Origin: Hydrolagus colliei | Lineage: Eukaryota | Direction: 5' to 3' | NCBI GenBank assembly: GCA_035084275.1 | Contig: CM068746.1 | Location: 2,170,001-2,234,000 of the forward strand | Length of the DNA stretch: 64,000 nt | In this document: positions 16,561 through 63,828 of the stretch, one piece after another | Numbering within the stretch: the stretch's first letter is position 1 | Layout of the letters: each line of letters starts with the position of its first letter | Notes under the pieces: generated by a model | What the model saw: only the letters and a program-made list of their open reading frames with translations | Database searches by the model: none | What the model was told of the DNA's origin: nothing | Made by a program: the position numbers and the translations under genes

Positions 16561-16643
16561 ATCATAGAATTTTACAGCACAAAATTCCGCCCATCTAGTC
16601 TGTGCCGGCTCTTTGAACAGAGCAACTCAATCCCACTGCCCAG
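16561..16643 (-). mobile_element. CR1 3'UTR terminus, separated from the rest of its copy by a hAT insertion
   Basis: Reverse complement 'tgggattgagttgctc...agccggcacagactagatgggc...aaaattctatgat' continues the CR1 at 18001 and matches the CR1 tail at 52730-52833. Confidence 0.9.
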
Positions 16644-17992
16644 TAGGGAACGGCGATATATCGGTATATCGGTAAAACCCGATATGATTTTCATATCAGT
16701 ATGCCGATATATACATTTTGAAGATACAGATATATCGAAAACCGGTATATCGAGGTAAAAAATCGGGATGCGAGCACAATCAACTACAAGACCCAGAATG
16801 CTCATCTCTATACACAATGCACAGACCGAGGTGCAAAGCCGCCATCTTGTATTCATAGTCCTCGAATACAATATACAGGTATGCAAGGGGTGGGGGGAGA
16901 GAGACGGCTGTGGGTGGGGGGGGTGAGGGGGAGAGAGACTGCTGGGGGGGGGGGAGGAGAGGGGGAGAGAGACGGCTGGGGGGGGGGGAGGAGAGGGGGA
17001 GAGAGACGGCTGGGGGGGGTGGAGAGAGAGGGCGGGGGGGGGGAGAGGGGGAGAGAGACGGCTGGGGGGGGGGGAGAGAGAGGGCGGGGGGGGGAGAGGG
17101 GGAGAGAGACGGCTTGGGGGGGGGTAGAGAGAGGGCGGGGGGGGGAGAGGGGGAGAGAGACGGCTGGGGGGGGTTGAGGGGGAGAGAGACGGCTGGGTGG
17201 GGGGAGGAGAGGGGGAGAGAGACGGCTGGGGGGGGGGGGAGAGAGAGGGCGGGGGGGGGAGAGGGGGAGAGAGACGGCTGGGGGGGAGAGGGGGAGAGAG
17301 ACGGCTGGTGGGGGGGAGAGGGGAGAGAGACGCCTGGGGGGGGGGGAGAGGGGGAGAGAGACGCCTGGGGGGGGGGGAGAGAGAGACGGCTGGGGGGGAG
17401 AGGGGGAGAGAGATGGCTGGGGGGAGAGGGGGAGAGAAACGGCTGGGGGGGAGAGGGGGAGAGAGACGGCTGGGGGGGAGAGGGGGAGAGAGACGGCTGG
17501 GGAGGGGGAGAGAGACGGCGGGGGTGGAGGGAGGAGAGGGGGAGAGAGACGGCTGGGGGGGGAGAGAGAGAGACGGCTGGGGGGGGAGGGGGGGAGGAGA
17601 GGGGGAGAGAGGCGGCTGGGGGGGGAGGGAGAGAGAGACGGCTGGGGTGGTGGGGGAGAGAGACGACGGGGGTGGGGGGTGCGAGAGAGGGACGGCGGGG
17701 GGGGGGAGGGTGGGGAGAGACGGGGTGGATGTGATAATATACAGATAGATAGAGATGGGGGGGGATGTGAGAGAGGAGAGAGGGAGAAAGACATAGAGAC
17801 ACACAGACAGAAAAACACAGAGATGGAGAGAGTGAGAGACACAGAGAGAGAAAGATATTTACCTCCTGAGAAGATAGGCCCCAAATGCGCGCGCACCCGG
17901 AAAAAAACGGAAAATATCGGTATTTCCGTATATCTCGATGTGAGCCCACCGATATATCCATATCCGGAAAATTCCCATATCGCCGTTCCCTA
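16644..17992. mobile_element. Non-autonomous hAT-type DNA transposon (1349 bp)
   Basis: 16-bp TIR TAGGGAACGGCGATAT...ATATCGCCGTTCCCTA. Perfect 8-bp TSD CTGCCCAG (16636-16643 and 17993-18000). Clustered subterminal CGATAT/ATATCG motifs at both ends. No transposase. Confidence 0.92.
16886..17730 (+). repeat. G-rich minisatellite, unit approx. GGAGAGGGGGAGAGAGACGGCT(G)n with a variant unit GAGAGAGGGC(G)n
   Basis: Direct reading; about 30 units with variable G-run length. Confidence 0.95.
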
Positions 17993-18577
17993 CTGCCCAG
18001 CTCTCTCCTCATAACCTAACAGGCCTGTTCTTCCTAAATAAAGATCTAGTTCCCTTTTAAAAGCTGTTATGGAATCTGCCTCCACCACCTTTTCAGGCAA
18101 TGCATTCCAGATTCGAACAACCCGCTGAGTGAAAAAAATTCTCCTCAGCTCTCCTCTGCTTCGTTTTGAAATTATTTTAAATCTGTGACCGTGAGTTACT
18201 GATTCGCCCACCAGTGGAAACAGTCTTTCCCTATTCACCCTGTCGAAACCTCTCATAATCTTATAAACCTCTATCAGGTCTCCTCTCAATCTTCTTTGTT
18301 CTAGAGAGAATAAGCCCTTGCCTATCTAGCCTTTCCTCGTAGCTGAAGTCCCTCATTCCTGGTACCATCCTAGTAAATCTCCTCTGTACCCTTTCCAATG
18401 CCTTAATATCCTTTCTGAAGTGGGGTGACCAGAATTGTACACAGTACTCCAGCTGAGGCCTAACCAAAGTCTTACAGAGGTTAATCAACACTTCCTGACT
18501 TTTGTACTCTATACCCCTATTTATAAAGCCTAGTATCCCATATGCCTTCTTAACGGCTTTGTCTACCTGTTCTGCCA
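17993..18577 (-). mobile_element. CR1 LINE, 5'-truncated ORF2 C-terminus, frameshifted
   Basis: Translations KAYGILGFINRGIEYKSQEV..LVRPQLEYCVQFWSP and RGDLIEVYKIMRG..FFTQRVVRIWNALP. Confidence 0.95.
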
Positions 18578-18719
18578 AATGACCAATTTTATTATTGTGG
18601 TTTTTTTTGGAGGCGTGTGGAGTAAGGAAACTTGCCCAAGGTTTTGCCCTGACCTGCCTGGATTCGAACACAGATCTCATGCTTGTAAGGCGAGTGCTTC
18701 TAACCACTGAACTGCAGGA
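18577..18719 (-). mobile_element. SINE 5' half (tRNA head) fused directly to CR1
   Basis: A and B boxes on the minus strand. The body stops at 'aattggtcattt' and CR1 begins immediately. Confidence 0.88.
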
Positions 18720-45395: not shown

Positions 45396-46260
45396 TGAGG
45401 CCCTCCTGATTGGCTCAAGCCAGCGCCTCCGCACATCGGGCGCTGCCAGCCTCAACATCCCAGGCTGTACTCTCCACCTCACAAAGCCAGTCAGGAACCT
45501 CGGCATCACGTTCGATCAAAAACTTTCCTTCCTCCCCCACCATCTGCGCTTTGACCGGCACCACTTATTTCCACCTGCGCAACATTGCCAGGCTCCGCAA
45601 CTATCTTACCCCCCGCGCTGCCGAAACACTCGTGCACGCGTACATCACCTCACGGCTGGACTACGGAAATTCTCTCCTCGTCGGCCTCCCCAGTTCCTCC
45701 ATTCACAGGCTGCAGGTCATCCAAAACTCTGCAGCCCGTGTACTATCCCGCACCCGCCTCCGCGACCACATAACCCCCACCCTCGCCCGTCTCCACTGGC
45801 TCCCCATCCTCCAGAGGATCGAGTTCAAGATCCTCGTCCTCACCTACAAGGCCTTACACGGCCTTGTCCCATCCTACCTAACCGATCTACTCTCCCCCTA
45901 CACGCCCACCCGGACCCTCCGTTCAACAGGACTTGGCCTGCTCCAAGCCCCCCGCCCGAACCGCCCCACCATCGGAGGCCGGGCCTTCAGTTTCTCCGCT
46001 CCCACCCTATGGAATGCCATCCCTCAATCCCTCCGTTTCGTCTCTTCCCTTTCCTCTTTCAAGGTCGGTTTGAAGACTTTCCTCTTCGATCGTGCCTTCT
46101 GTTCCACCCCGAACTCTTTTACCTCCCCTTCGTGTTTTACCCCTTCCCAAACACTCCCCTCCCAGCTCGGGTCACACGCCTCCTGTGCAGCGCCTTGGGA
46201 CGTCCTCCCGACGTGAAAGGTGCTCTATAAATGTAATTTGTTGTTGTTGTTGTTGTTGTG
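45396..46260 (+). mobile_element. Young L2 LINE, 5'-truncated ORF2 C-terminus with (TTG)n tail
   Basis: Translation YFHLRNIARLR..LVHAYITSRLDYGNSLL..IQNSAAR..HITPTL..LHWLP..RIEFKIL..WNAIP; frameshift near 45540. Confidence 0.95.
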
Positions 46261-51029: not shown

Positions 51030-52289
51030 TTAAACTGATACAGAATAATTATAACCAGAGAGGAAGTTCTAAAAAGGTTGACGTTGCTCAAGGTGGATAA
51101 GTCACCTGGTCCGGATGGGATGCACCCTAGGTTACTAAGTGAGGCACGGGAGCAAATAGCAGGGACTCTGGCCACGATCTTTCAATCTTCCTTGGACACA
51201 GGGGTCGTGCCAGAGGACTGGAGGATAGCTAATGTTACTCCCTTGTATAAAAAGGGGCAGAAGGACAAGCCTGGTAACTACAGACCAGTCAGTCTAACGT
51301 CGGTAGTGGGCAAACTTCTAGAGTCCATAATCAGGGACAAGGTAAATCTTCACTTAGAAAGATATAGGCTAATAAAGGACAGTCAACATGGATTTGTTAA
51401 AGGCAAATCTTGCCTTACAAATCTGATAGAATTTTTTGATGAGGTAACGGAATGGGTGGATAATGGTAGCGCAGTTGATGTAGTTTACATGGACTTTCAA
51501 AAGGCATTTGCAAAGTGCCACATGAGAGACTTATTATGAAATTAAAGGCCCATGGCGTAAAAGGGACAGTGGCAGCGTGGATCCACAACTGGCTGCGAGA
51601 CAGAAAGCAGAGAGTTGTAGTGAGCGGCTGTTTTTCAGATTGGAGGGAAGTGAGCAGTGGTGTGCCACAGGGATCGGTTTGGGGACCATTGCTGTTTGTA
51701 ATCTACATCAATGATCTGGACTTGGGTGTAGGGAGTACAGTTTCCAAGTTTGCAGATGACACTAAGTTAGGGAGAATAGTAAATAGTGAGGAGGATAGTA
51801 GCCATCTGCAAGAGGATATAGACAAATTGGTAAAGTGGGCAGACACATGGCAGATGAAGTTTAATGCAGAGAAGTGTGAGGTGATGCATTTTGGGAGAAG
51901 AAATGAAGGGAGTACAATGTTAAATGGTGTGAAGGAACAGAGAGACCTGGGGATTTGTGTTAGTGACTCGTTGAAGGTGGCAGGACAGGTAGACAAGGCT
52001 GTTAATAAGGCATATGGGATACTAGGCTTTATAAATAGGGGTATAGAGTACAAAAGTCAGGAAGTGCTGACTAACCTCTATAAGACTTTGGTGAGGCCTC
52101 AGCTGGAATACTGTGTTCAATTCTGGTCACCACATTACAGAAAGGATGTGAAGACATTGGAAAGGGTACAAAGAAGATTTACTAGGATGGTGCCAGGATT
52201 GAGGGACTTCAGCTATGAGGAGAGGCTAGATAGGCTAGGGTTATTCTCTCTGGAGCAGAGAAGATTGAGGGGAGACCTAATAGAGGTCT
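51030..52289 (+). mobile_element. CR1 LINE ORF2 reverse transcriptase domain, 5'-truncated, frameshifted
   Basis: Motifs KSPGPDG, NYRPVSLTS, QHGF, DFQKAF, GVPQGS, FADD, LEYCVQFWSP; 1-bp deletion near 51508 splits the ORF. Confidence 0.97.
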
Positions 52290-52833
52290 CCCACAAAAAT
52301 ACAGTCAAAATCACAATATATTCTGTGAAGCGCTTTGAGATGCCCAGAAGATGATATATTGATGGAGATGAAGGGATGTGAAGGAGTTGCAATTAGTGTG
52401 AGTTCCACGTTAGTGTTAAATAGATCAATCAGACGAAAACTTCCTTGGAATAGTCAATGTGGTTGCCACAAATCTGTCATTTAACCAGTGTTTGACAGAT
52501 ATTATAAAACACCAACTTGTACCTTTCATGTAGGGTATCCAGATTTAAAATAGTTTCAAGGTGAAGTAGAGGGGAGCTGAGGAGAAATTTTTTCACTCAG
52601 CGAGTTGTTCGAATCTGGAATGCATTGCCTGAAAAGCTGGTGGAGGCTGATTCGATAACAACTTTTAAAAGGGAATTAGATGTTTATTTAGGGAGAACAG
52701 GTCTATTAGGCTATGGGGAGCGGGCAGGGCAGTGGGATTGAATCGCTCTTTTCAAAGAGCCGGCACAGACTAGATGGGCCGAATGGCCTCCTTTTGTGCC
52801 GTAAAATTCTATGAATCTATGAATCTATGAATC
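52290..52833 (+). repeat. 544-bp duplicate of 60117-60660 (SINE piece, unique DNA, CR1 3' end)
   Basis: Ungapped match at offset 7827 with about 9 substitutions counted by eye. Confidence 0.95.
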
Positions 52834-53669
52834 TTTGAAAAGCTTAATGAAAATTGGCACTCAACTTGCCAAACCACACAATTTCCCCACTCCCATGTTG
52901 TATAGTGGGAAGAAACCAACATATTTATCCATGTAATTCGGTCACAAAGGCAACATTGAATGAAAAATTAAAGGATAAAATGATTGTTGAAACTATTGTG
53001 GATTTCACCCCACCACTGTCTCATGGCAGAAATGGCTATAGACACTTCCTAGAATCGCGGAGGTGATCACATTTGTAGAACATCCCTCCACCTTCACCAC
53101 GCTATCCTGCTCTACTTCCCTCTGAAACAACCTTCCCTCACCCCCAAAACCCCAGCAACGTGGAAACGCCGTGCCTCGTGTTGGTTCCCTTGCGGAGAGA
53201 AACAAAATGATATCTTGCAAGTTCTCTACCAAGATGTAAAAAAAACACGCCAGCCTTAATGTGAAACAATACAAGTTTAATTAAATGTTGACATTTGTGA
53301 ATTCACCCAAAATGATCTGACTTCAATTTGATTCATTGCTCATCCATGTTCTATTATGAACAAGATTAGCATCTGGATAGCTTCAACCACAGAGTTTTTT
53401 CCTTATTAACCCCTTCCTTTTCTTTTTTTACACACAATCTTAGCATAATATTAACGCTCAAATCCCTTAATGGCCTCGCCTTTTTAAAGCCAGGTTAAGA
53501 GCTATCTTTCGGTACATATTTTCCCCCTCCCACCTAGCCCCCCTCTCACCGCTCCAACTACAACAACTTCAAGCTCCCTCCCACAGATGGGGGCTACAAG
53601 TCAGCTTGGGAAGCAATTTGAGACACCTTATTAAACACTGCACTCATTGTAAATTGTTGTTGTTGTTGT

Positions 53670-54595
53670 TTTCATTCTCACTTTTAAATCCCTCCATCGC
53701 CCTGCCCAGCCTCTGTGACCTTCTAGAGTCCCACCAACCCACTCCCTCCCTCTGCTTGGCAGACAGTGGCTCGCTTCATATCTTCCGCCTTTGCTCACCC
53801 CATTGTCAGCAGTTATGCCTGAACAACAACAACAACAATGACAACAACTTGCATTTATATATAATGCCCTCCATGCCAGACAGTGTTTCAGACCACTTCA
53901 CAATAGTGGAGCCCAAGTCAGAGCCTGGGGGGAGGGGAAAGGTGACCGTAGGCGCAGTATTGAGCAGAAACATCTTCTGGCACGACCTGAAAATGGACAA
54001 GGAGAAGGGGGGTGAAGGCGAAGTTGATTGAGGAAGGGACTTGTAGAGTTTCGGAGGCCGCCGCTGGTGGAGCGGACAAGGAGGACAAGGAGGAGGCCAG
54101 TCCCAGGAGCGGGTACTGCTGTGAGGAGAGAGCAGGTAAGGGAGGTAGGGAAGATGCAGTGGAGTGGAGGGAATTAAACAGGAGAATGAGGATCTTGAAG
54201 TCAATCCATTCTGTGACAAGGAGGCAGCGAAGTCTGGCGAGGACTGGGGTAATCGGGGAGCCAAGTTTGGTTTGGGTGAGAATGTGGGCGTCGGAGTTCT
54301 GCATGATCCGAATTTTACAAACGGTGGAGGAGGGCAGACCTATGAGGCCTACAGCCTTTCTGCCTCCACCCTCTGGAATGCTATCCCAGAGTCCCTGATG
54401 CTTGTCTTACTCAAGGTCATTCTCAAGATGTTCTTATTTAACGTGCTTAAATTTATCTTCTAACCACTAACCCCTCTTCACCTCACTTCTACCGACTCCA
54501 GCCCCCAGCTCGGGCGTTGCACCCTCGACTGTCCACCTTCCTAATGTAAAAGGTGCGATTTGAATGCAATTTATTATTGTGAGTTATTTTGTTGT
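53670..54595. mobile_element. Cluster of L2 fragments (minus 53820-54340; plus 53670-53815 and 54345-54595)
   Basis: ORF 53918-54304(-) contains QNSDAHILT..ITPVLARL..IDFKILIL; separate L2 tails. Confidence 0.78.
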
Positions 54596-55483
54596 ATTCA
54601 TTTTTAATTTGGCTCCTTTGTAGTCTATCCGGTTCCCCTGCCGGGAAAGCAAATCTTTGATTAGCTTTCTGTTGAGTGTTGCTTTGTTTGTGTAACATGG
54701 CGGAAATGAATGAACTTCAGCGTCAGTGGCGCTGGGCTACATCGTTTCCCGAATGTCATGAATAACTCGAGAAACTTCAATTTTATCTTCATGAATCTTC
54801 CCGGGTGCGTTTGTCATGCTAATAGGTTTAGATTATTCACCGATGCTAATTGCAAGCCATTTGCAGGGGGAATTTCATTTGGTGAGAAAATCCTCTTTCC
54901 TTTGTAAAGTTGAAACAGACTGGCTGATTGTGAAATTTTGACAGTGTATTCATTGCACTATTACTCGTAACATATTGATCAATTAAACTGTTAACCTTAA
55001 TTTGTATGTAGCAATTAGTTTGTTTAGAAAAAAATGTTTTCCATATACCAATATTGTTAATCACTCAAATGTAGTAGTGTTGTTTTATTATGTTTTGCTT
55101 CTGCCATTTAATTTGACTGAATAAGTCTATTTAATGTCACATACTGCTCAAAATAAATACCTCAGCTTCAAACCAATGCATTTAACATTCTGAATGATTC
55201 CAATATGTGACTGCCGTAGGCCCTTCGAGCAATTGGCAGTTCTTCACGCATTGGCAGTATCAAACTCTTCCCTATCGAATCTCCTTTCATAACATAAACA
55301 ATCCTTGCCTTTCACGTCAGGAGGATGTTTCAGGTTGCTTCACATGGTTTACTGTGCCATCCTTTCAACGCTGTGTTAAACCGAGGTCCAATCTGTCTGT
55401 ACAGTGGATGTTAAGGCCATTCATGGCCTTGCCCCCTTCCTATCTCTCCAATCTGCTGTCCTCCTATGAACCTCCGTTCAACA

Positions 55484-55730
55484 GGTTACAGCTCGATAGT
55501 CCAAAGGTTCGTTAGTCTGAAAGGTTCATTAGTCCGAAGGTTTGTTAGACCGAAGCTTCCCCAAACCCTAACCCTAACCCTAAACCTAACCCTAAGCATG
55601 GAAATGTTCGGATTAACAAACCTTATTTCATAGTTGGTTTGGACTATCGAGCAGTAACCACGGTAACTGCCCCGGGTATAGGAAATTTGTGTGTTTGGAC
55701 TATCAAACCTTCGGACTATCGTGTGTCCCC
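55484..55730. mobile_element. Short foldback / MULE-like non-autonomous DNA transposon with internal (CCCTAA)n
   Basis: Both ends are built from inverted ~15-nt repeats (GGTTCGTTAGTCCGAA-like). GG...CC termini, candidate 9-bp TSD CGTTCAACA/CGTTCAGTA, splits an L2 fragment. Confidence 0.65.
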
Positions 55731-56516
55731 CGTTCAGTAGGCTCTGGTCTGCTTCATGCCCCCCGCCCTACCTTCGGTGGCTGGGCTTTCAGCCTCTCTG
55801 CCCCCACACTCTGGAACTCCATCCCACAGTCAACCATTGTCTTAGTAATATAGATTTGGGGGTAATCTTATGTAATTACCTGTCTATAGGATGTAATTTC
55901 GATGCAATGTAATACTTTCCTCTCTGTTGCTATCAGTCATTTTCAGATCAGCTGTAATATAACCAGCACAGAACAAATCTATATCTTCTTTGTCCCAACT
56001 AAAATCATAACTTGAAGAAGTTAATTCACTTTAAAAAATTCTTCATAATAGTTCTACTTTTTGGTGCGCTGATTAATTCAGTGAAATTAATTAATTTCTA
56101 AAATTAAATATAAAGAGCCCATTCTTTCAATAGTGATGTGGATTTCCGGGATGTAGTGATTAGTATATAGTATTAAAAAGACTAAAGAGTATCAAAATAT
56201 TCAAATTTTTTATTTACATATTAATAATTATAGCTTATATCAAATGAAAGTTGCTTTATCCAGCACATTTCACAATTCTAATTGTTAAACTGACTTCTTT
56301 AATTAACAATTCCGTTTCTTGTATAATAAAGATCCTTAAATATGTTGATCATACTTTAATTATTTCCGATATAGCATTTCAAAGACATTAATATCCCATC
56401 GTTTGCATCTCACTATTACTTATAGTTACATACTTGTAAATCTGTGAAAGTTTTAATGTAAAATAACATGGAATGGAATAATATGCCTTCAAAAACATTT
56501 TATTTTATTGTCTTCA

Positions 56517-56842
56517 TAATAATAATAATAATCCTTGCATTTGATATAGCGCTTTTCACATTTTATTGACGTCTCAAAGCGCTTCACAGAATATACTGTA
56601 AAGTGTATTGACTGTAGATTTTGTGGGCAGAACGCAACAGCCAATTGCATACAGCAGTGTCCCACAAACAATCTTGGGTTGAAATGACCAATTTTATTAT
56701 TGTGGTCTTTTTTTGAATGGATTATTATTAGGAGTGTGCGTGCGGAGTAAGGAAACCTGCCCAAGGTTTGGCCCTGACCTGCCTGGATTCGAACACAGCT
56801 TGTAAGGCGAGCGCTCTAAGCACTGAGCTACAGGAGCTCCAC
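56517..56842 (-). mobile_element. Young full-length tRNA/Deu SINE
   Basis: Reverse complement of the family, beginning GTGGAGCTCCTGTAGCTCAG. Confidence 0.93.
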
Positions 56843-59689
56843 GTTGGGGGTTCTACTGCTACTAGAATTTAACCAACAAAAACCCAACAAAGTCTGCCAT
56901 TGAGAGCAGATTTCCTGCGGCTTGTGCTGAGACTGGCCGACCAAGATCCACCGTACGGTTGACTCAATTCTGACATTCCGTTGCCAAATACCTTGGAGCC
57001 AGCTCAGCTCTAAGGAAACCCCACTAAACTCTCCCCAAGGAAGGGCAGTTGATTAACTTCTATGAGTTGCGATGTTTCGATGCTCATTTAATTTGGATTC
57101 AGCTAACGACAGTGTTACTGATCCCATAGACAGCTCCAAACCAAAACAGAAAACTAAAGCTATCGATACACCGACAGGTCAGAGAATAAGACTTGATTTA
57201 ATCCTCAAAAATTACGATTCTCTAATTATCGGAGTATTTTAGGCAAAAAGTAGATTATCTTTTTAATTGATGATTAATCTCTTAATCCTTTAACGGGTCA
57301 AATTGCACAGCAATTTTTTAATTCCACATTTGAGATTTAGAAGTTAGAAGAAATTGCTTTATTGACTATGCAACCCACGGATCCTGTGGCTAAAGAAGAA
57401 ATTGGCGACAATCAATATGGACCTTTCGTATCATTCAGTTGCTAAGATAAGACTTTTCACCTAAGGGATGAATAATGACTTTCAATGAAGCATTAGGCAT
57501 TTAAATGTATCTTTAGAAGGCTTGCAACCTTGACATAGTTATTTAAGAACAATTAATAATCAGAAAAGCACACGTACCATTTGCATATTCTGCACAAAAC
57601 TTTTTAAGTGCAAAATTGAAAGGGAATAAGGGTATCTTCTGTGCATCTCGCTGGTCAACGAGTCGGCGACTAGAAAAGAGAATTCAGTAGAAGACAATAG
57701 GGGAAGTTTTGAAGATTTATTTAGCAAGGGTCCATAACATCAGATAAAGAGGCATTTCATAACCAATTGAAAAATAATACTAAAGGATGAGACAGAATTA
57801 ATGTAGACATTATGTGCTGAGTGACATGTTTCTGTGCTGTGAACATCTATGCTACATTGGCACGTTAAACAACAGGAACAGAGGCAAACTTTGCTACATT
57901 AACAATGAGAACTCTGAACTCTAAAGCAAATCTAGAAACACTTGAGTGAAGCACTTACTGAGAAATTTACAAAATATCGTGGCAGTAGTGTGGGAAAAAA
58001 ACAACAAAAATACACAAAGTACTGACGTAAAATCAGACCTGTGAAGTACTTCTAGACTTTGAGGTGAGGTAAGGTGCTATATCAAATGCAAACATTATTA
58101 TTGTGTTATTGTTTGTTGTTTTGCTAATTAAGTGAGGATCAATATATCTTTTGCATTACAAACGCAATATCCTGTATCATATAAACCTAAAATGATCGCG
58201 AGAGAGTTTCAGATGAAGAAAGTCAATAATAACCTAACCAGATTTGTTCTGCTCTCGTTTCCGTGCATTCCTGCAAAAAAATGAATGAATGAATGAATCT
58301 GCCAGCCTTCCAGAACACTGCATCAGTCACAGTTTGAATCCGCGTGAAGATGATATCTTTGACCACTGGCGTTGAATTCAAATCCCGTTGCCTAGAGAGA
58401 TCTAATGGACAAATAAATTAACGACTCCTGTACCTTGGGCAGTCACAGGTAAAGAATTAGACTCGCTGTGAAACCCTTCGTACTTGGAGCCAACATTTCA
58501 CAAATCTCCGTCATTACTCCATCAGAGTATGTGCTGTAGCTTCATTAAAGCCAAAGTCACCCAATGCTTTTATGACTTGTACAGACAAGGCATTTTACAC
58601 AGAGTGTTCCCCTTACAAAGGTGCATTTTCAAATTATTTTATGTTCCTTCTCAGACAAAATAAATAACCTCAGAGGCAATTTTTGGTAGTTGCTGCATTG
58701 AGTAAAGTCCCCTTGAAGTATTTAAACCTGTTTACATAGGTTACTCAAAGGCCTGGTGTGATACGGGTAGTGTGTCATTGGGACCATAAAGAAAATTCAA
58801 TAAAACATTTTAATCCACGTCAAATTCAACCTTTATTTTCTTAGCGTCGCAGAACATCCAGAAGGTGGTAAATTCTTAAATACAATCTTAATTTTAAAGC
58901 CATTTTCCTGAAAGTTACTTAAAAAAGAAAATTTGACCTCCAGAATAAATCCTGAGAACGTTCTCGGGACATCTCAAAGATTTGTTAGGATGATTTAATA
59001 ATTGTAATAATAATAATCCTTGCCTTTGAAAAATCACTTATCATCTCAAAGCACCTCACAGGGTATACTGTAAAGTAGATTGACTGTATAATTGTGGGTT
59101 AAATGCAGCTGAATTTTGCCTCTGGGGGTGGTGTGTGTGGAGGGAGGGGTGGGGGGTGGGGGGATGAGGTGGGAGGGGGTGACGAGGACGGGAAAGGTGG
59201 CAAGGGGCAAGATCCTAAGGGGTACATTTTGAGACGTTCCTCGAAAGAGGCGAGGCATTAAAGCAAGTTAGGAGTTGTTGAATTCTAGTTGTCGAAACTT
59301 CATGGCCACAAACGTCGTTCGTATTTTTCACGGCAACATTTAAACGGGCTTTCGAAGAGAACTTTTGAAAAAAAAGAATAATCTTCTTGATGATATGTCT
59401 TTGCCTCCTTTAACTTTCGCCATTTAAGGCAACGCGTGGCACAGAATCTCGTAGGATTTCATCGTGCAGAGTTTTATCCCCAAAGCTGTCTTGAGGGATT
59501 AAACCAGCATACTTATTATAGTCTCACAAGATTTAGCTACAAATAAAGATTGATAGCTCACTGATGTACATGTTGGTTTCCACCTAGAAGATAAATGTAC
59601 ATTGTTTCCAAGGTAATTTTTCATAGAATTTAGGTGTTACAAGGTAATGTGAATCACTAATGTAGCATTTCTGACAGCAACTGTGTATT

Positions 59690-59906
59690 CAAAAACACAA
59701 AATACTGTACGGCAGATGCTGGAAATCTGAAACCAATACAGGAATCGCTGGGAACACTCAGCGGGTCAGGCAGCATCTATGGAGAAAGGAAGAGCGAATC
59801 AACGTTTTGGGTCCACCGCCCTGCCCTTCGTTAGAACACAGCGACTCACTTTTCCTCTCTCCATAGACCTGCCGAGCGTTCCCAGCAATTTCTGTGTTGG
59901 TTTCAG
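59690..59906 (-). mobile_element. Penelope-like insertion: pseudo-LTR (minus) plus inverted partial copy
   Basis: 59690-59837 is antisense to 4852-4993 and 59840-59906 is a sense partial copy. Flanking 15-bp direct repeat CAGCAACT(G/T)TGTATT (59675-59689 and 59904-59918). Confidence 0.75.
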
Positions 59907-60059
59907 CAACTTTGTATTAGTAGATTAAAATGATTCATTTAAAAACAAAATTAAAGGCATGAATTTGTGTTCCCTGGATGCCAAATGTACGGAGATTAGG
60001 TAAGAAATTGTGATATGTAATTGACCGTGTGGTTTGAAATGTTTTGTTCAAAGGCAATA

Positions 60060-60180
60060 CTTCAATCCACAACTGTTTGTGGGACACCGCTGCGCGCAAT
60101 TGGCTGCCACATTTCACCCACAAAAATACAGTCAAAATCACAATATATTCTGTGAAGCGCTTTGAGTTGCCCAGAAGATG
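60060..60180 (+). mobile_element. SINE 3' fragment
   Basis: 'ttcaatccacaactgtttgtgggacaccgctgcgcgcaattggctgcc...gaagcgctttgag'. Confidence 0.8.
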
Positions 60181-60366
60181 ATATATTGATGGAGATGAAG
60201 GGATGTGAAGGAGTTACAATTAGTGTGAGTTCCACGTTAGTGTTAAATAGATCAATCAGACGAAAACTTCCTTGGAATAGTCAATGTGGTTGCCACAAAT
60301 CTGTCATTTAACCAGTGTTTGACAGATATTATAAAACACCAACTTGTACCTTTCATGTAGGGTATC

Positions 60367-60660
60367 CAGATTTAAAATAGTTTCAAGGCGCAGTAGAGGG
60401 GAGCTGAGGAGAAATTTTTTCACTCAGCGAGTTGTTCGAATCTGGAATGCATTGCCTGAAAAGGTGGTGGAGGCTGATTCGATAACAACTTTCAAAAGGG
60501 AATTAGATCTTTATTTAGGGAGAACAGGTCTATTAGGCTATGGGGAGCGGGCAGGGCAGTGGGATTGAATCGCTCTTTTCAAAGAGTCGGCACAGACTAG
60601 ATGGGCCGAATGGCCTCCTTTTGTGCCGTAAAATTCTATGAATCTATGAATCCATGAATC
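60367..60660 (+). mobile_element. CR1 3' end, heavily 5'-truncated, with (ATCTATGA)n tail
   Basis: Encodes RFKIVSRRSRGELRRNFFTQRVVRIWNALPEKVVEA. Confidence 0.95.
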
Positions 60661-61477
60661 CAGGGGCTCTTAAATATTATGAGATCATACAGTAGTTCAG
60701 TATGTTACATTTGTTCTCCCATATTCATCGCTTAATTGTCTCCCTTCTGCTCCACAAGCCAGCGATTTGGGCTTGGATCCATTCTCGAGGCACCGCTGAC
60801 CAGTTCCACAAATGTGCCAGAGACTGTTTCTTCATGAGAGAGCGTGGACGGTGAATGTCAGCTATGGCGTTCAACAACACGTTGCTTCCTCACCAGCTCT
60901 GATGAGTAAAACACACTGTCGCTTCCTGAAATAAAAAAAGCTTACAGACCATACGTTTCACAGCTGTTTCATCACTTTGGTCATAATTCGAGCCATGCTT
61001 TCAAACTACCTCCCTGAGCAGGCTGAGCTCTAGCTACAGGCAAACCACCCTCCCCACTCACCTCCCACCCCAGGTCTCCTCGGAACAGTAGCTATGGTTG
61101 GTGGTGAAGGTGCGGACGGAGGATGGGGGAGTGGGGGGGAGAGGGATGTGGAGGCATCAACCCAGTTTGTCTGACTGGGATTCCCTCCTATGGATACAGA
61201 GGCACAAAGATTTTGTTCTTACAGTAATTAGCTGCTGGTTTTGGGGATCCTGTCATCATCATTACAGCTCACAGCCAATTCAAATCCAGAATGAGTGAAA
61301 CGTATGGGAATAAAAAATGTCAACCAAGCGATAGGTGTTCATTGGCTGTTGGTGAGTGACTGGTTTACCAGTAAGATTGCCTGAAGCAACTCTGAGCAAC
61401 ACTATCAGTAAGTCCTGTTACGAACCGTCATTCTTAGACCCAGTCGATCCTTGAAATTTCCACTGCTGCACTTCTCA

Positions 61478-62995: not shown

Positions 62996-63828
62996 CAAAC
63001 AACAACAACAATTTACATTTATATAGCGCCTTTCACGTCGGGAGGACGTCCCAAGGCGCTGCACATGAGGCGTGTGACCCGAGCTGGGAGGGTAGTGTTT
63101 GGGAAGGGGTGAAACAAGAAGGGGAGGTAAAAGAGTTCGGGGTGGAACAAAAGGCACGATCGAAGAGGAAAGTCTTCAAACCAGCCTTGAAAGAGGAAAG
63201 AGAAGAGACGAAACGGAGGGATTGAGGGATGGCATTCCATAAGGTGGGAGCGGAGAAACTGAAGGCCCGGCCTCCGATGGTGGGGCGGTTCGGGCGGGGG
63301 GCTTGGAGCAGGCCAAGTCCTGTTGAACGGAGGGTCCGGGTGGGCGTGTAATCGTGTGGGAGAGTAGATCAGTTAAGTAGGATGGGGCAAGGCCGTGTAA
63401 GGCCTTGTAGGTGAGGACGAGGATCTTAAACTCAATCCTCTGGAGGATGGGGAGCCAGTGGAGACGGGCGAGGGTGGGGGTTATGTGGTCGCGGAGGCGG
63501 GTGCGGGATAGTACACGGGCTGCAGAGTTTTGGATGGTCTGCAGCCTATGAATGGAGGAACTGGGGAGGCCGACTAGGAGAGAATTTCCGTAGTCCAGCC
63601 TCGAGGTGATGTATGCGTGCACGAGTGTTTCGGCAGTGCGGGGGGTAAGATAGTTGCGGAGCCTGGCAATGTTGCGCAGATGGAAATAGGCGGTGCCGGT
63701 CAAGGCCCGGATGTGGGGGAGGAAGGAAAGTTTTTGATCGAACATGATGCCGAGGTTCCTGATTGGCTTTGTGAGGTGGAGAGTGCAGCCTTGGATATTG
63801 AGGCTGGCAGCGCCCGATGTGCGGAGGC
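62996..63828 (-). mobile_element. Young L2 LINE, 5'-truncated, close paralog of 45396-46260
   Basis: ORF 63176-63745(-) is near-identical in translation; small frameshifting insertion near 63350. Confidence 0.95.

Follow-up and report, generated by a model that had tools for sequence, protein, structure and literature searches.

Within a 64,000-nucleotide (nt) stretch of the Hydrolagus colliei genome (assembly GCA_035084275.1, contig CM068746.1, forward-strand positions 2,170,001–2,234,000; hereafter the window), a CR1-type long interspersed element (LINE) breaks off, gives way to 250 nt of non-CR1 DNA, and then resumes (Table 1). This patch, which we have named Y, is a copy of the DNA that lies immediately upstream of a second, short CR1 in the same window. 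Self-comparison aligned 52290–52833 with 60117–60660 over 544 bp, without gaps and with nine mismatches; the two copies are offset by 7,827 nt, with a spacing of 7,281–7,283 nt between them. Two of the mismatches fall in the non-CR1 part (52340, 52389) and seven in the CR1 part (52562, 52564, 52637, 52666, 52682, 52760, 52826), the same counts as those given in an initial annotation of this sequence.

The recipient element (51042–52837) carries a reverse transcriptase (RT) domain (PF00078) and ends in a hairpin (z = -2.99) followed by an 8-nt microsatellite (period-8 repeat at 52808–52839); 5' truncations occur in its family. A 3' hairpin preceding an 8-nt microsatellite is among the terminal features described for CR1 (PMC8665684), and it is this structure, along with sequence motifs, that would place the element in the CR1 clade. 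Two deletions interrupt its RT region, one of 1 nt near 51510 and one of 18 nt near 51910. Family copies recovered by querying with the body and with each of the two tails are mostly 95–99% alike. In most of the 87 other CR1 loci, 81 nt of CR1 separate the equivalents of 52287 and 52540; against these young copies, Y stands in place of 81 nt. The initial annotation had described a CR1 open reading frame that stops at 52289, with CR1 resuming from approximately 52540 after some 250 bp and about 80 nt missing relative to a copy near 18.2 kb. Patch, resumption, and size of loss all hold; however, the family match already ends at 52287, and the 18-kb copy is older and lies outside the event.

Table 1. 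Features of the recipient and donor loci, in window coordinates
Feature	Position	Strand	Remarks
Recipient CR1-type LINE body	51042..52287	+	5'-truncated; 95–98% to family copies; Pfam RVT_1 in two frames
Left junction, non-homologous	52287..52289	+	1-nt microhomology plus two letters; 81 nt of CR1 missing here
Y patch	52290..52539	+	~64 nt of short interspersed element (SINE) remnant, then unique DNA; 2 mismatches to 60117–60366
CR1 3' end, native	52540..52837	+	Hairpin plus 8-nt tandem repeat; not donor-copied
Interval where donor copying must end	52540..52563	+	First lineage-diagnostic difference at 52564; merged X21 contig stops at 52563 equivalent
Old SINE remnant	60059..60180 (start approximate)	+	Crosses donor breakpoint at 60117
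Donor Y	60117..60366	+	Ancestral flank immediately 5' of donor CR1 truncation point
Donor-side CR1	60367..60660	+	294-nt 5'-truncated copy from the other source lineage (C at 60391) within the same young family; absent in run X9
Older CR1 copy	17989..18577	-	88–91% alike; reference used in the initial annotation; outside the event

The two ends of Y differ in kind. On the left, 52287 constitutes a 1-nt microhomology with donor position 60114, and 52288–52289 are two letters that may represent either filler or donor-derived sequence with one change. On the right, the junction is the point at which the short CR1 of the donor starts, i.e., a homologous junction, and it is here that the role proposed early on for LINE homology is seen. 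Only the last ~64 nt of the SINE remnant are present in the recipient (52290–52353). Around Y, neither poly(A) nor a target-site duplication was found. We also considered and rejected an LTR (long terminal repeat)-like element bounded by the 544-bp repeats; these "repeats" are flank plus LINE tail, and no non-repeat frame from the interval among those sent for comparison matched Pfam.

Copy number, donor, and orthologous loci

The unique core of Y (52345–52535) gave two matches in the 1.0-Gb genome, both within the window and in the number initially predicted, using a DNA search that skips very common words. Y is present in none of the 87 other CR1 loci, and with the two genome matches this led us to reject a composite CR1 subfamily carrying Y, a possibility the initial annotation had raised against itself. 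The sole other internal insert among the 87 loci (95 nt, locus L027) resembles an ordinary retroposon tail.

Orthologous loci were compared through the contigs of six of 24 sequencing runs (X1, X4, X5, X6, X9, X21). X1 and X4 represent a single sample (S1) bearing the same organism label; X21 originates from another study and has its own flank variants. In X5, from a relative approximately 4% diverged in the flanks, 51041 is joined to 52838; this empty site lacks the 52-kb CR1 and sets the 5' end of the recipient. In the relative represented by X9, a contig at single depth joins 60151–60364 to 60658–60823 with two letters between, such that Y is present without the adjacent CR1. Since X9 has Y once and lacks the 60-kb CR1, the 60-kb locus is the donor, as had been proposed from the window alone; Y is ancestral there, with the short CR1 having inserted beside it later. 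As a separate observation, the same six letters flank the donor CR1 at 60364–60369 and 60658–60663, a possible target-site duplication overlapped by microhomology, where the X9 contig has two further letters.

An assembly error, or Y as a normal part of a CR1 subfamily, would find some encouragement in X1, X4, X5, and X6, none of which has a contig over the Y core, but we regard this as highly improbable. In X21, a single 223-nt contig crosses Y (52341–52563) at a depth of 78.6, compared to 39.9, 42.3, 50.3, and 46 in the flanks; it starts just past the first Y difference and stops just before 52564. Being bounded where the copies differ and at roughly double depth, this contig is as expected of two collapsed copies, and neither its depth nor its ends give any sign of misassembly; this agrees with the two genome matches of Y. 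X21 also has the donor letter at 52389 and 52562, and these two differences may thus be recent. The S1 contigs contain both junctions of the 52-kb CR1, with the Y core uncovered at both loci. As the upstream flank of the donor is also uncovered, notably in X4, this gap points to contig dropout and says nothing as to an allele with CR1 but without Y; the donor-side gap is equally uninformative in X5 and X6. In the displayed data, the body–Y junction is spanned by no read.

Extent of the copied tract

The CR1 tails on the two sides were compared to 79 family copies (eight of the 87 loci having been dropped as apparent duplicates, plus five self loci) and then to 96 copies (with three more loci in the contiguous stretch dropped). 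In neither set does any site carry a non-majority base in both tails, i.e., the tails have no derived base in common. Each departs from the family majority at three of 273 sites, all at different sites, and the six differences between them are on a par with the median of seven between body-selected copies. Position 52564, moreover, splits the family, with A and C at a ratio of 8:9 among the 17 of 20 unbiased local copies that span it; the recipient belongs with the A group and the donor with the C group, and a reversion at this site has a probability of approximately 0.001. In the body of the recipient, the allele linked to A is found at five of eight linked sites (51784, 51931, 52083, 52154, 52172).

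The lack of a shared derived base and the A/C split at 52564 together show that the recipient tail is native, with copying having ended no more than 24 nt from the 5' edge of the donor. The two CR1 tails match because the family is young. From these sequence comparisons, the true duplication is approximately 250–274 nt (Y plus at most 24 nt), with the 294-nt CR1 part of the match being family similarity. We therefore rejected copying of the whole 544 bp, as originally claimed, given the absence of shared derived bases and the difference at 52564; the comparison of tail single-nucleotide polymorphisms (SNPs) with the family, suggested at the time as a check, came out in favor of a short tract with the tail not copied.

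These limits also bear on two other histories. In the first, unequal crossover between the tails would generate a 7.8-kb tandem duplication, of which nearly all of the extra copy would later be deleted. This yields the same order of parts, and retroposon-mediated duplications followed by deletions are known in humans (PMC9675761), but three coincidences would be needed that one-step models explain, namely a crossover confined to the initial 24 of 294 nt, a deletion start no more than 81 nt from the colinear point, and retention of 250 nt of 7.5 kb; we thus consider it very unlikely. In the second, put forward in the initial annotation as its alternative, RT would have changed templates to a read-through transcript of the 60-kb locus. 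The orientation is the same, LINE chimeras have been proposed to arise by RNA-to-RNA switching (PMC13174262), and RNA-derived patches at breaks have been reported (PMC5110952). However, priming on the tail of the donor is ruled out by 52564, the model gives no reason for the donor being the nearest copy, and no host coding exon was detected, with none of 147 non-repeat frames (taken from 148 listed of 153 candidates) matching Pfam in a comparison that would miss short exons. This account is accordingly given little credence, and the stronger rival is instead a switch of cDNA onto nearby genomic DNA during insertion, weighed below.

Break repair versus a detour during insertion

Our best reading, which we deem reasonably probable, is that a break in the recipient was mended by one-sided invasion of the neighboring 5'-truncated CR1 and then end-joining, leaving Y as a scar; one-sided invasion had also been preferred in the initial annotation. 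(i) After insertion of both CR1 copies, a germline break would have occurred in the 81-nt stretch or no more than 24 nt past it. (ii) The tail-side end would then invade the nearest same-strand copy, ~98% identical and 7.3 kb away, with trimming of the unpaired end. (iii) Synthesis would start at the 5' edge of the donor and pass straight into unique flank, given that the donor is truncated just at that point. (iv) After 250 nt, the strand would come off the donor and be end-joined to the other side of the break, with 0–1 nt of microhomology. The break, its timing, and the enzymes involved are what we infer. What the locus itself displays, from its anatomy and direction of copying to the tract limit and native tail, includes one homologous and one non-homologous junction, near-colinear resumption of CR1, and an 81-nt loss, all of which support repair. 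If the break fell in the 81 nt not shared with the donor, synthesis is predicted to begin at the donor's edge, as observed. The donor is also the nearest young copy, with the next ones 21 and 25 kb away.

A detour in the course of retrotransposition is a possible, though clearly less likely, origin. Here, cDNA would copy the 294-nt tail from CR1 RNA, pair with a genomic CR1 7.3 kb away, continue 250 nt into its flank, return to the RNA 81 nt further on, and be extended by 1.25 kb. The direction of copying is that of cDNA, a native tail and a single-lineage body are predicted equally well, and the ages of Y and of the insertion match. Such a switch is also how templated insertions of human L1 have been explained, 22 of which were reported in ~3,600 insertions (10.1101/2024.08.27.596794). 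Those cases are typically shorter than 250 bp and lie no more than 15 bp from the site, however, and the detour at this locus would require two switches, including a return to RNA at 0–1 nt of homology. Moreover, no second example was found in the 87 searched loci or among the 20 other young CR1 copies of a 1.664-Mb stretch.

We surveyed these 1.664 Mb around the window, at least 24% of which are repeats, together with the 87 CR1 loci. Of 15 two-copy clusters in this stretch, four tandem or fold-back, three >100 kb apart, and one merged cluster were excluded; the seven left are dispersed pairs <30 kb apart, with the Y pair being the sole dispersed two-copy segment at ~98% identity or better. 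In five of the seven, the window locus included, one copy interrupts a retroposon that resumes afterwards. Two of the four other inserts have SINE homology at the tail-side junction and copying into the 5' flank of the donor, as for Y; in one of these, the 870-kb case, a 45-nt match is followed by a 23-nt gap, rendering the homology-led reading less sure. Microhomology alone is seen for the remaining two, and the repeat inside case 4 is unrelated to its host. Divergence of insert from donor relative to that of host from nearest relative is 2.6/5.8%, 3.3/7.9%, 3.1/17.5%, and 6.9/8.6%, such that the insert is less diverged than its host in three of four (P = 0.011, <0.001, and <0.001; P = 0.21 for the fourth), with the nearest-neighbor ages of the four hosts being upper bounds that include CpG sites. 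With three of four inserts younger than their hosts, a route independent of insertion is at work in this genome, and on this basis we lean toward repair rather than the detour. That all three homology-led cases run into the 5' flank of the donor (P = 0.125) would suit the cDNA detour, but the two besides Y appear younger than their host SINEs.

Beyond the upper-bound nature of those host ages, several points weigh against repair after insertion. The difference between the Y copies (2/250, 0.8%) is the same as the nearest-neighbor divergence of the recipient (0.8–1.3%), and age thus fails to separate Y from the insertion. From five private non-CpG changes in ~1,467 nt of the recipient, 1.7 Y differences would be expected were Y as old as the insertion, compared to two observed (one to three, depending on how the junction and a recent site are counted); the resulting likelihood ratio of 1.0–3.1 favors a same-time origin, and the mismatch counts of Y and tail alone are not different (Fisher P = 0.19). 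As a means of dating, mismatch counts lack the power to choose between repair and detour. With respect to timing relative to the host CR1, X5 lacks the whole element, X21 has it with Y, and X1 and X4 have no contig over Y; no individual with the 52-kb CR1 but without Y was seen in the contigs of the six runs. At the remaining three of the eight linked body sites (51537, 51640, 52084), the recipient has the allele seen more often alongside C, though each of these alleles is also common with A. Finally, the 7.3-kb distance and 81-nt deletion are outside the ranges given for repair-mediated duplications (5-kb cut-off; 1–15 nt) (PMC2671141). The allele state in the population can decide between repair and retrotransposition.

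Relationship to known duplications

The class of event to which Y belongs has already been described in vertebrates, with the Y locus being a homology-led variant. Pace, Sen, Batzer and Feschotte (2009) reported 824 proximal repair-mediated duplications (RDs) in human transposable elements, with others in ten vertebrates, including mammals, chicken, and zebrafish, and explained them by synthesis-dependent strand annealing (SDSA) (PMC2671141). As described there, RDs are 50–619-bp inserts from a single donor that interrupt a transposable element, the donor being close by, on the same chromosome, and intact. The Y locus is alike in that (i) an insert of at least 50 bp (250 nt) interrupts a transposable element, here CR1, (ii) the insert is found at exactly one other place (two genome matches), with an intact, ancestral donor, and (iii) there is no poly(A) on the insert, with an 81-nt deletion, 1-nt microhomology, and two odd letters at the junction. 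It differs in that its donor is 7.3 kb away, compared to an ad hoc RD cut-off of 5 kb, that CR1 resumes after 81 nt, where the RD filter allows 30 and the RD sample has 1–15, and that one junction comprises 294 nt of paralogous LINE homology, in contrast to the 2–9 nt of RD junctions. According to its published description, the RD screen also drops inserts whose flanks match a second place (PMC2671141), and would thus likely have missed a homology-led form of duplication. With both cut-offs (5 kb; 30 bp) exceeded and long element homology at one junction, we do not file Y as a strict RD, even though it works like one.

One-sided invasion, or coupled homologous and non-homologous repair, was reportedly the subject of work by Belmaaza and Chartrand (1994), Richardson and Jasin (2000), and Tremblay et al. 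(2000). The likeness lies in one end priming on an ectopic homolog, copying beyond the homology, and being end-joined, giving one homologous and one non-homologous junction as in Y. Those were experimental breaks in cultured cells, whereas the present case would be a germline fossil with a break deduced from its junctions. Templated insertions of L1, on which Gilbert et al. (2005) are said to have reported, constitute another parallel. In these, a LINE copy takes in genomic DNA from outside the element as a local duplication, for which a cDNA-switch model was proposed; the L1 template is, however, usually within 15 bp and the insertion made at integration (10.1101/2024.08.27.596794), as opposed to a donor 7.3 kb away and an internal patch. 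Templated insertions at induced breaks (10.1101/2022.09.30.509517) and class 2 templated sequence insertion polymorphisms (TSIPs) (PMC5110952) resemble Y in their invasion or annealing at the donor and end-joining at the acceptor, with marks of non-homologous end joining (NHEJ); TSIP donors differ in being distant, thought to be RNA-derived, and not guided by repeat homology. No natural homology-led case was found in the open literature, although subscription papers and supplements (e.g., Table S1 of PMC2671141) may hold some.

As a single locus, Y is of little weight, since the LINE that received these 250 non-coding nt was broken already, and no function of the duplicate is evident. Its value is rather that of a clean fossil, in which lineage SNPs place the end of copying within 24 nt and relatives reveal both empty sites. 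Should the homology-led form be common, dense young retroposons would steer small local duplications of a kind that current screens throw out; exons or regulatory sites can be carried along in duplications of this sort (PMC2671141). In a bolder and, in our estimation, doubtful extension, retroposon-guided flank capture would be recurrent in this genome, with nascent CR1 cDNA or a broken end pairing with a copy kilobases away, running off its 5' edge, and returning; the Y case would then be an RNA-to-DNA-to-RNA double switch. If true, three cases in 1.66 Mb, all into the 5' flank of the donor, would translate to the order of a thousand events genome-wide, of the form filtered out by the RD screen.

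The four neighboring inserts are of note in their own right. At L121 (G000:C13:2317941-2318216, 2323936-2324213), the second clear homology-led case, an inverted 268-nt copy of a SINE 5' flank interrupts a different SINE at a distance of 5.7 kb; this host SINE repeats ~60 nt where it resumes, the copies have 7/268 differences, and the segment has two genome matches. L233 (G000:C13:3039721-3040170) and L236 (3065940-3066395) form an inverted 450-nt pair 26 kb apart, in which the copy lies inside a SINE and begins, at the donor, beside a short SINE tail; the copied piece is the remnant of an old repeat that has just two close copies. The RD-like inserts at L102 (240 nt; G000:C13:2060630-2060870, 2061920-2062155) and L251 (131 nt; G000:C13:3217131-3217261, 3218311-3218441) each have a donor ~1.1 kb away and microhomology only. 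A frequency of two RD-like inserts in at least 0.39 Mb of repeat DNA lies above the highest published rate, 0.65 per Mb (P = 0.03), with the proviso of small numbers and a different method.

Other structures were encountered in passing. Three young fold-back duplications of unique DNA (G000:C13 ~1777070-1777310, 1941700-1941910, 1966660-1967120) have arms of 106–158 nt and spacers of 2–153 nt. Elsewhere, L034 (G000:C6:41145482-41149078) contains three or more young CR1 pieces, all on one strand and two of them arranged head to tail, consistent with either tandem insertion or a recombination product. Within the window, the older minus-strand CR1 is split (16562–18719), its 3' part broken near 17989 by ~1.3 kb that includes a G-rich minisatellite (16893–17723), and its 5' end at 18577 directly adjoins a SINE. 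An 830-nt repeat forms an inverted pair (45425–46251 and 62998–63828; 94.8% alike, 16.7 kb apart) with family copies nearby, and a small element at 55470–55720 contains a 16-nt tandem repeat and six telomere-like hexamers.

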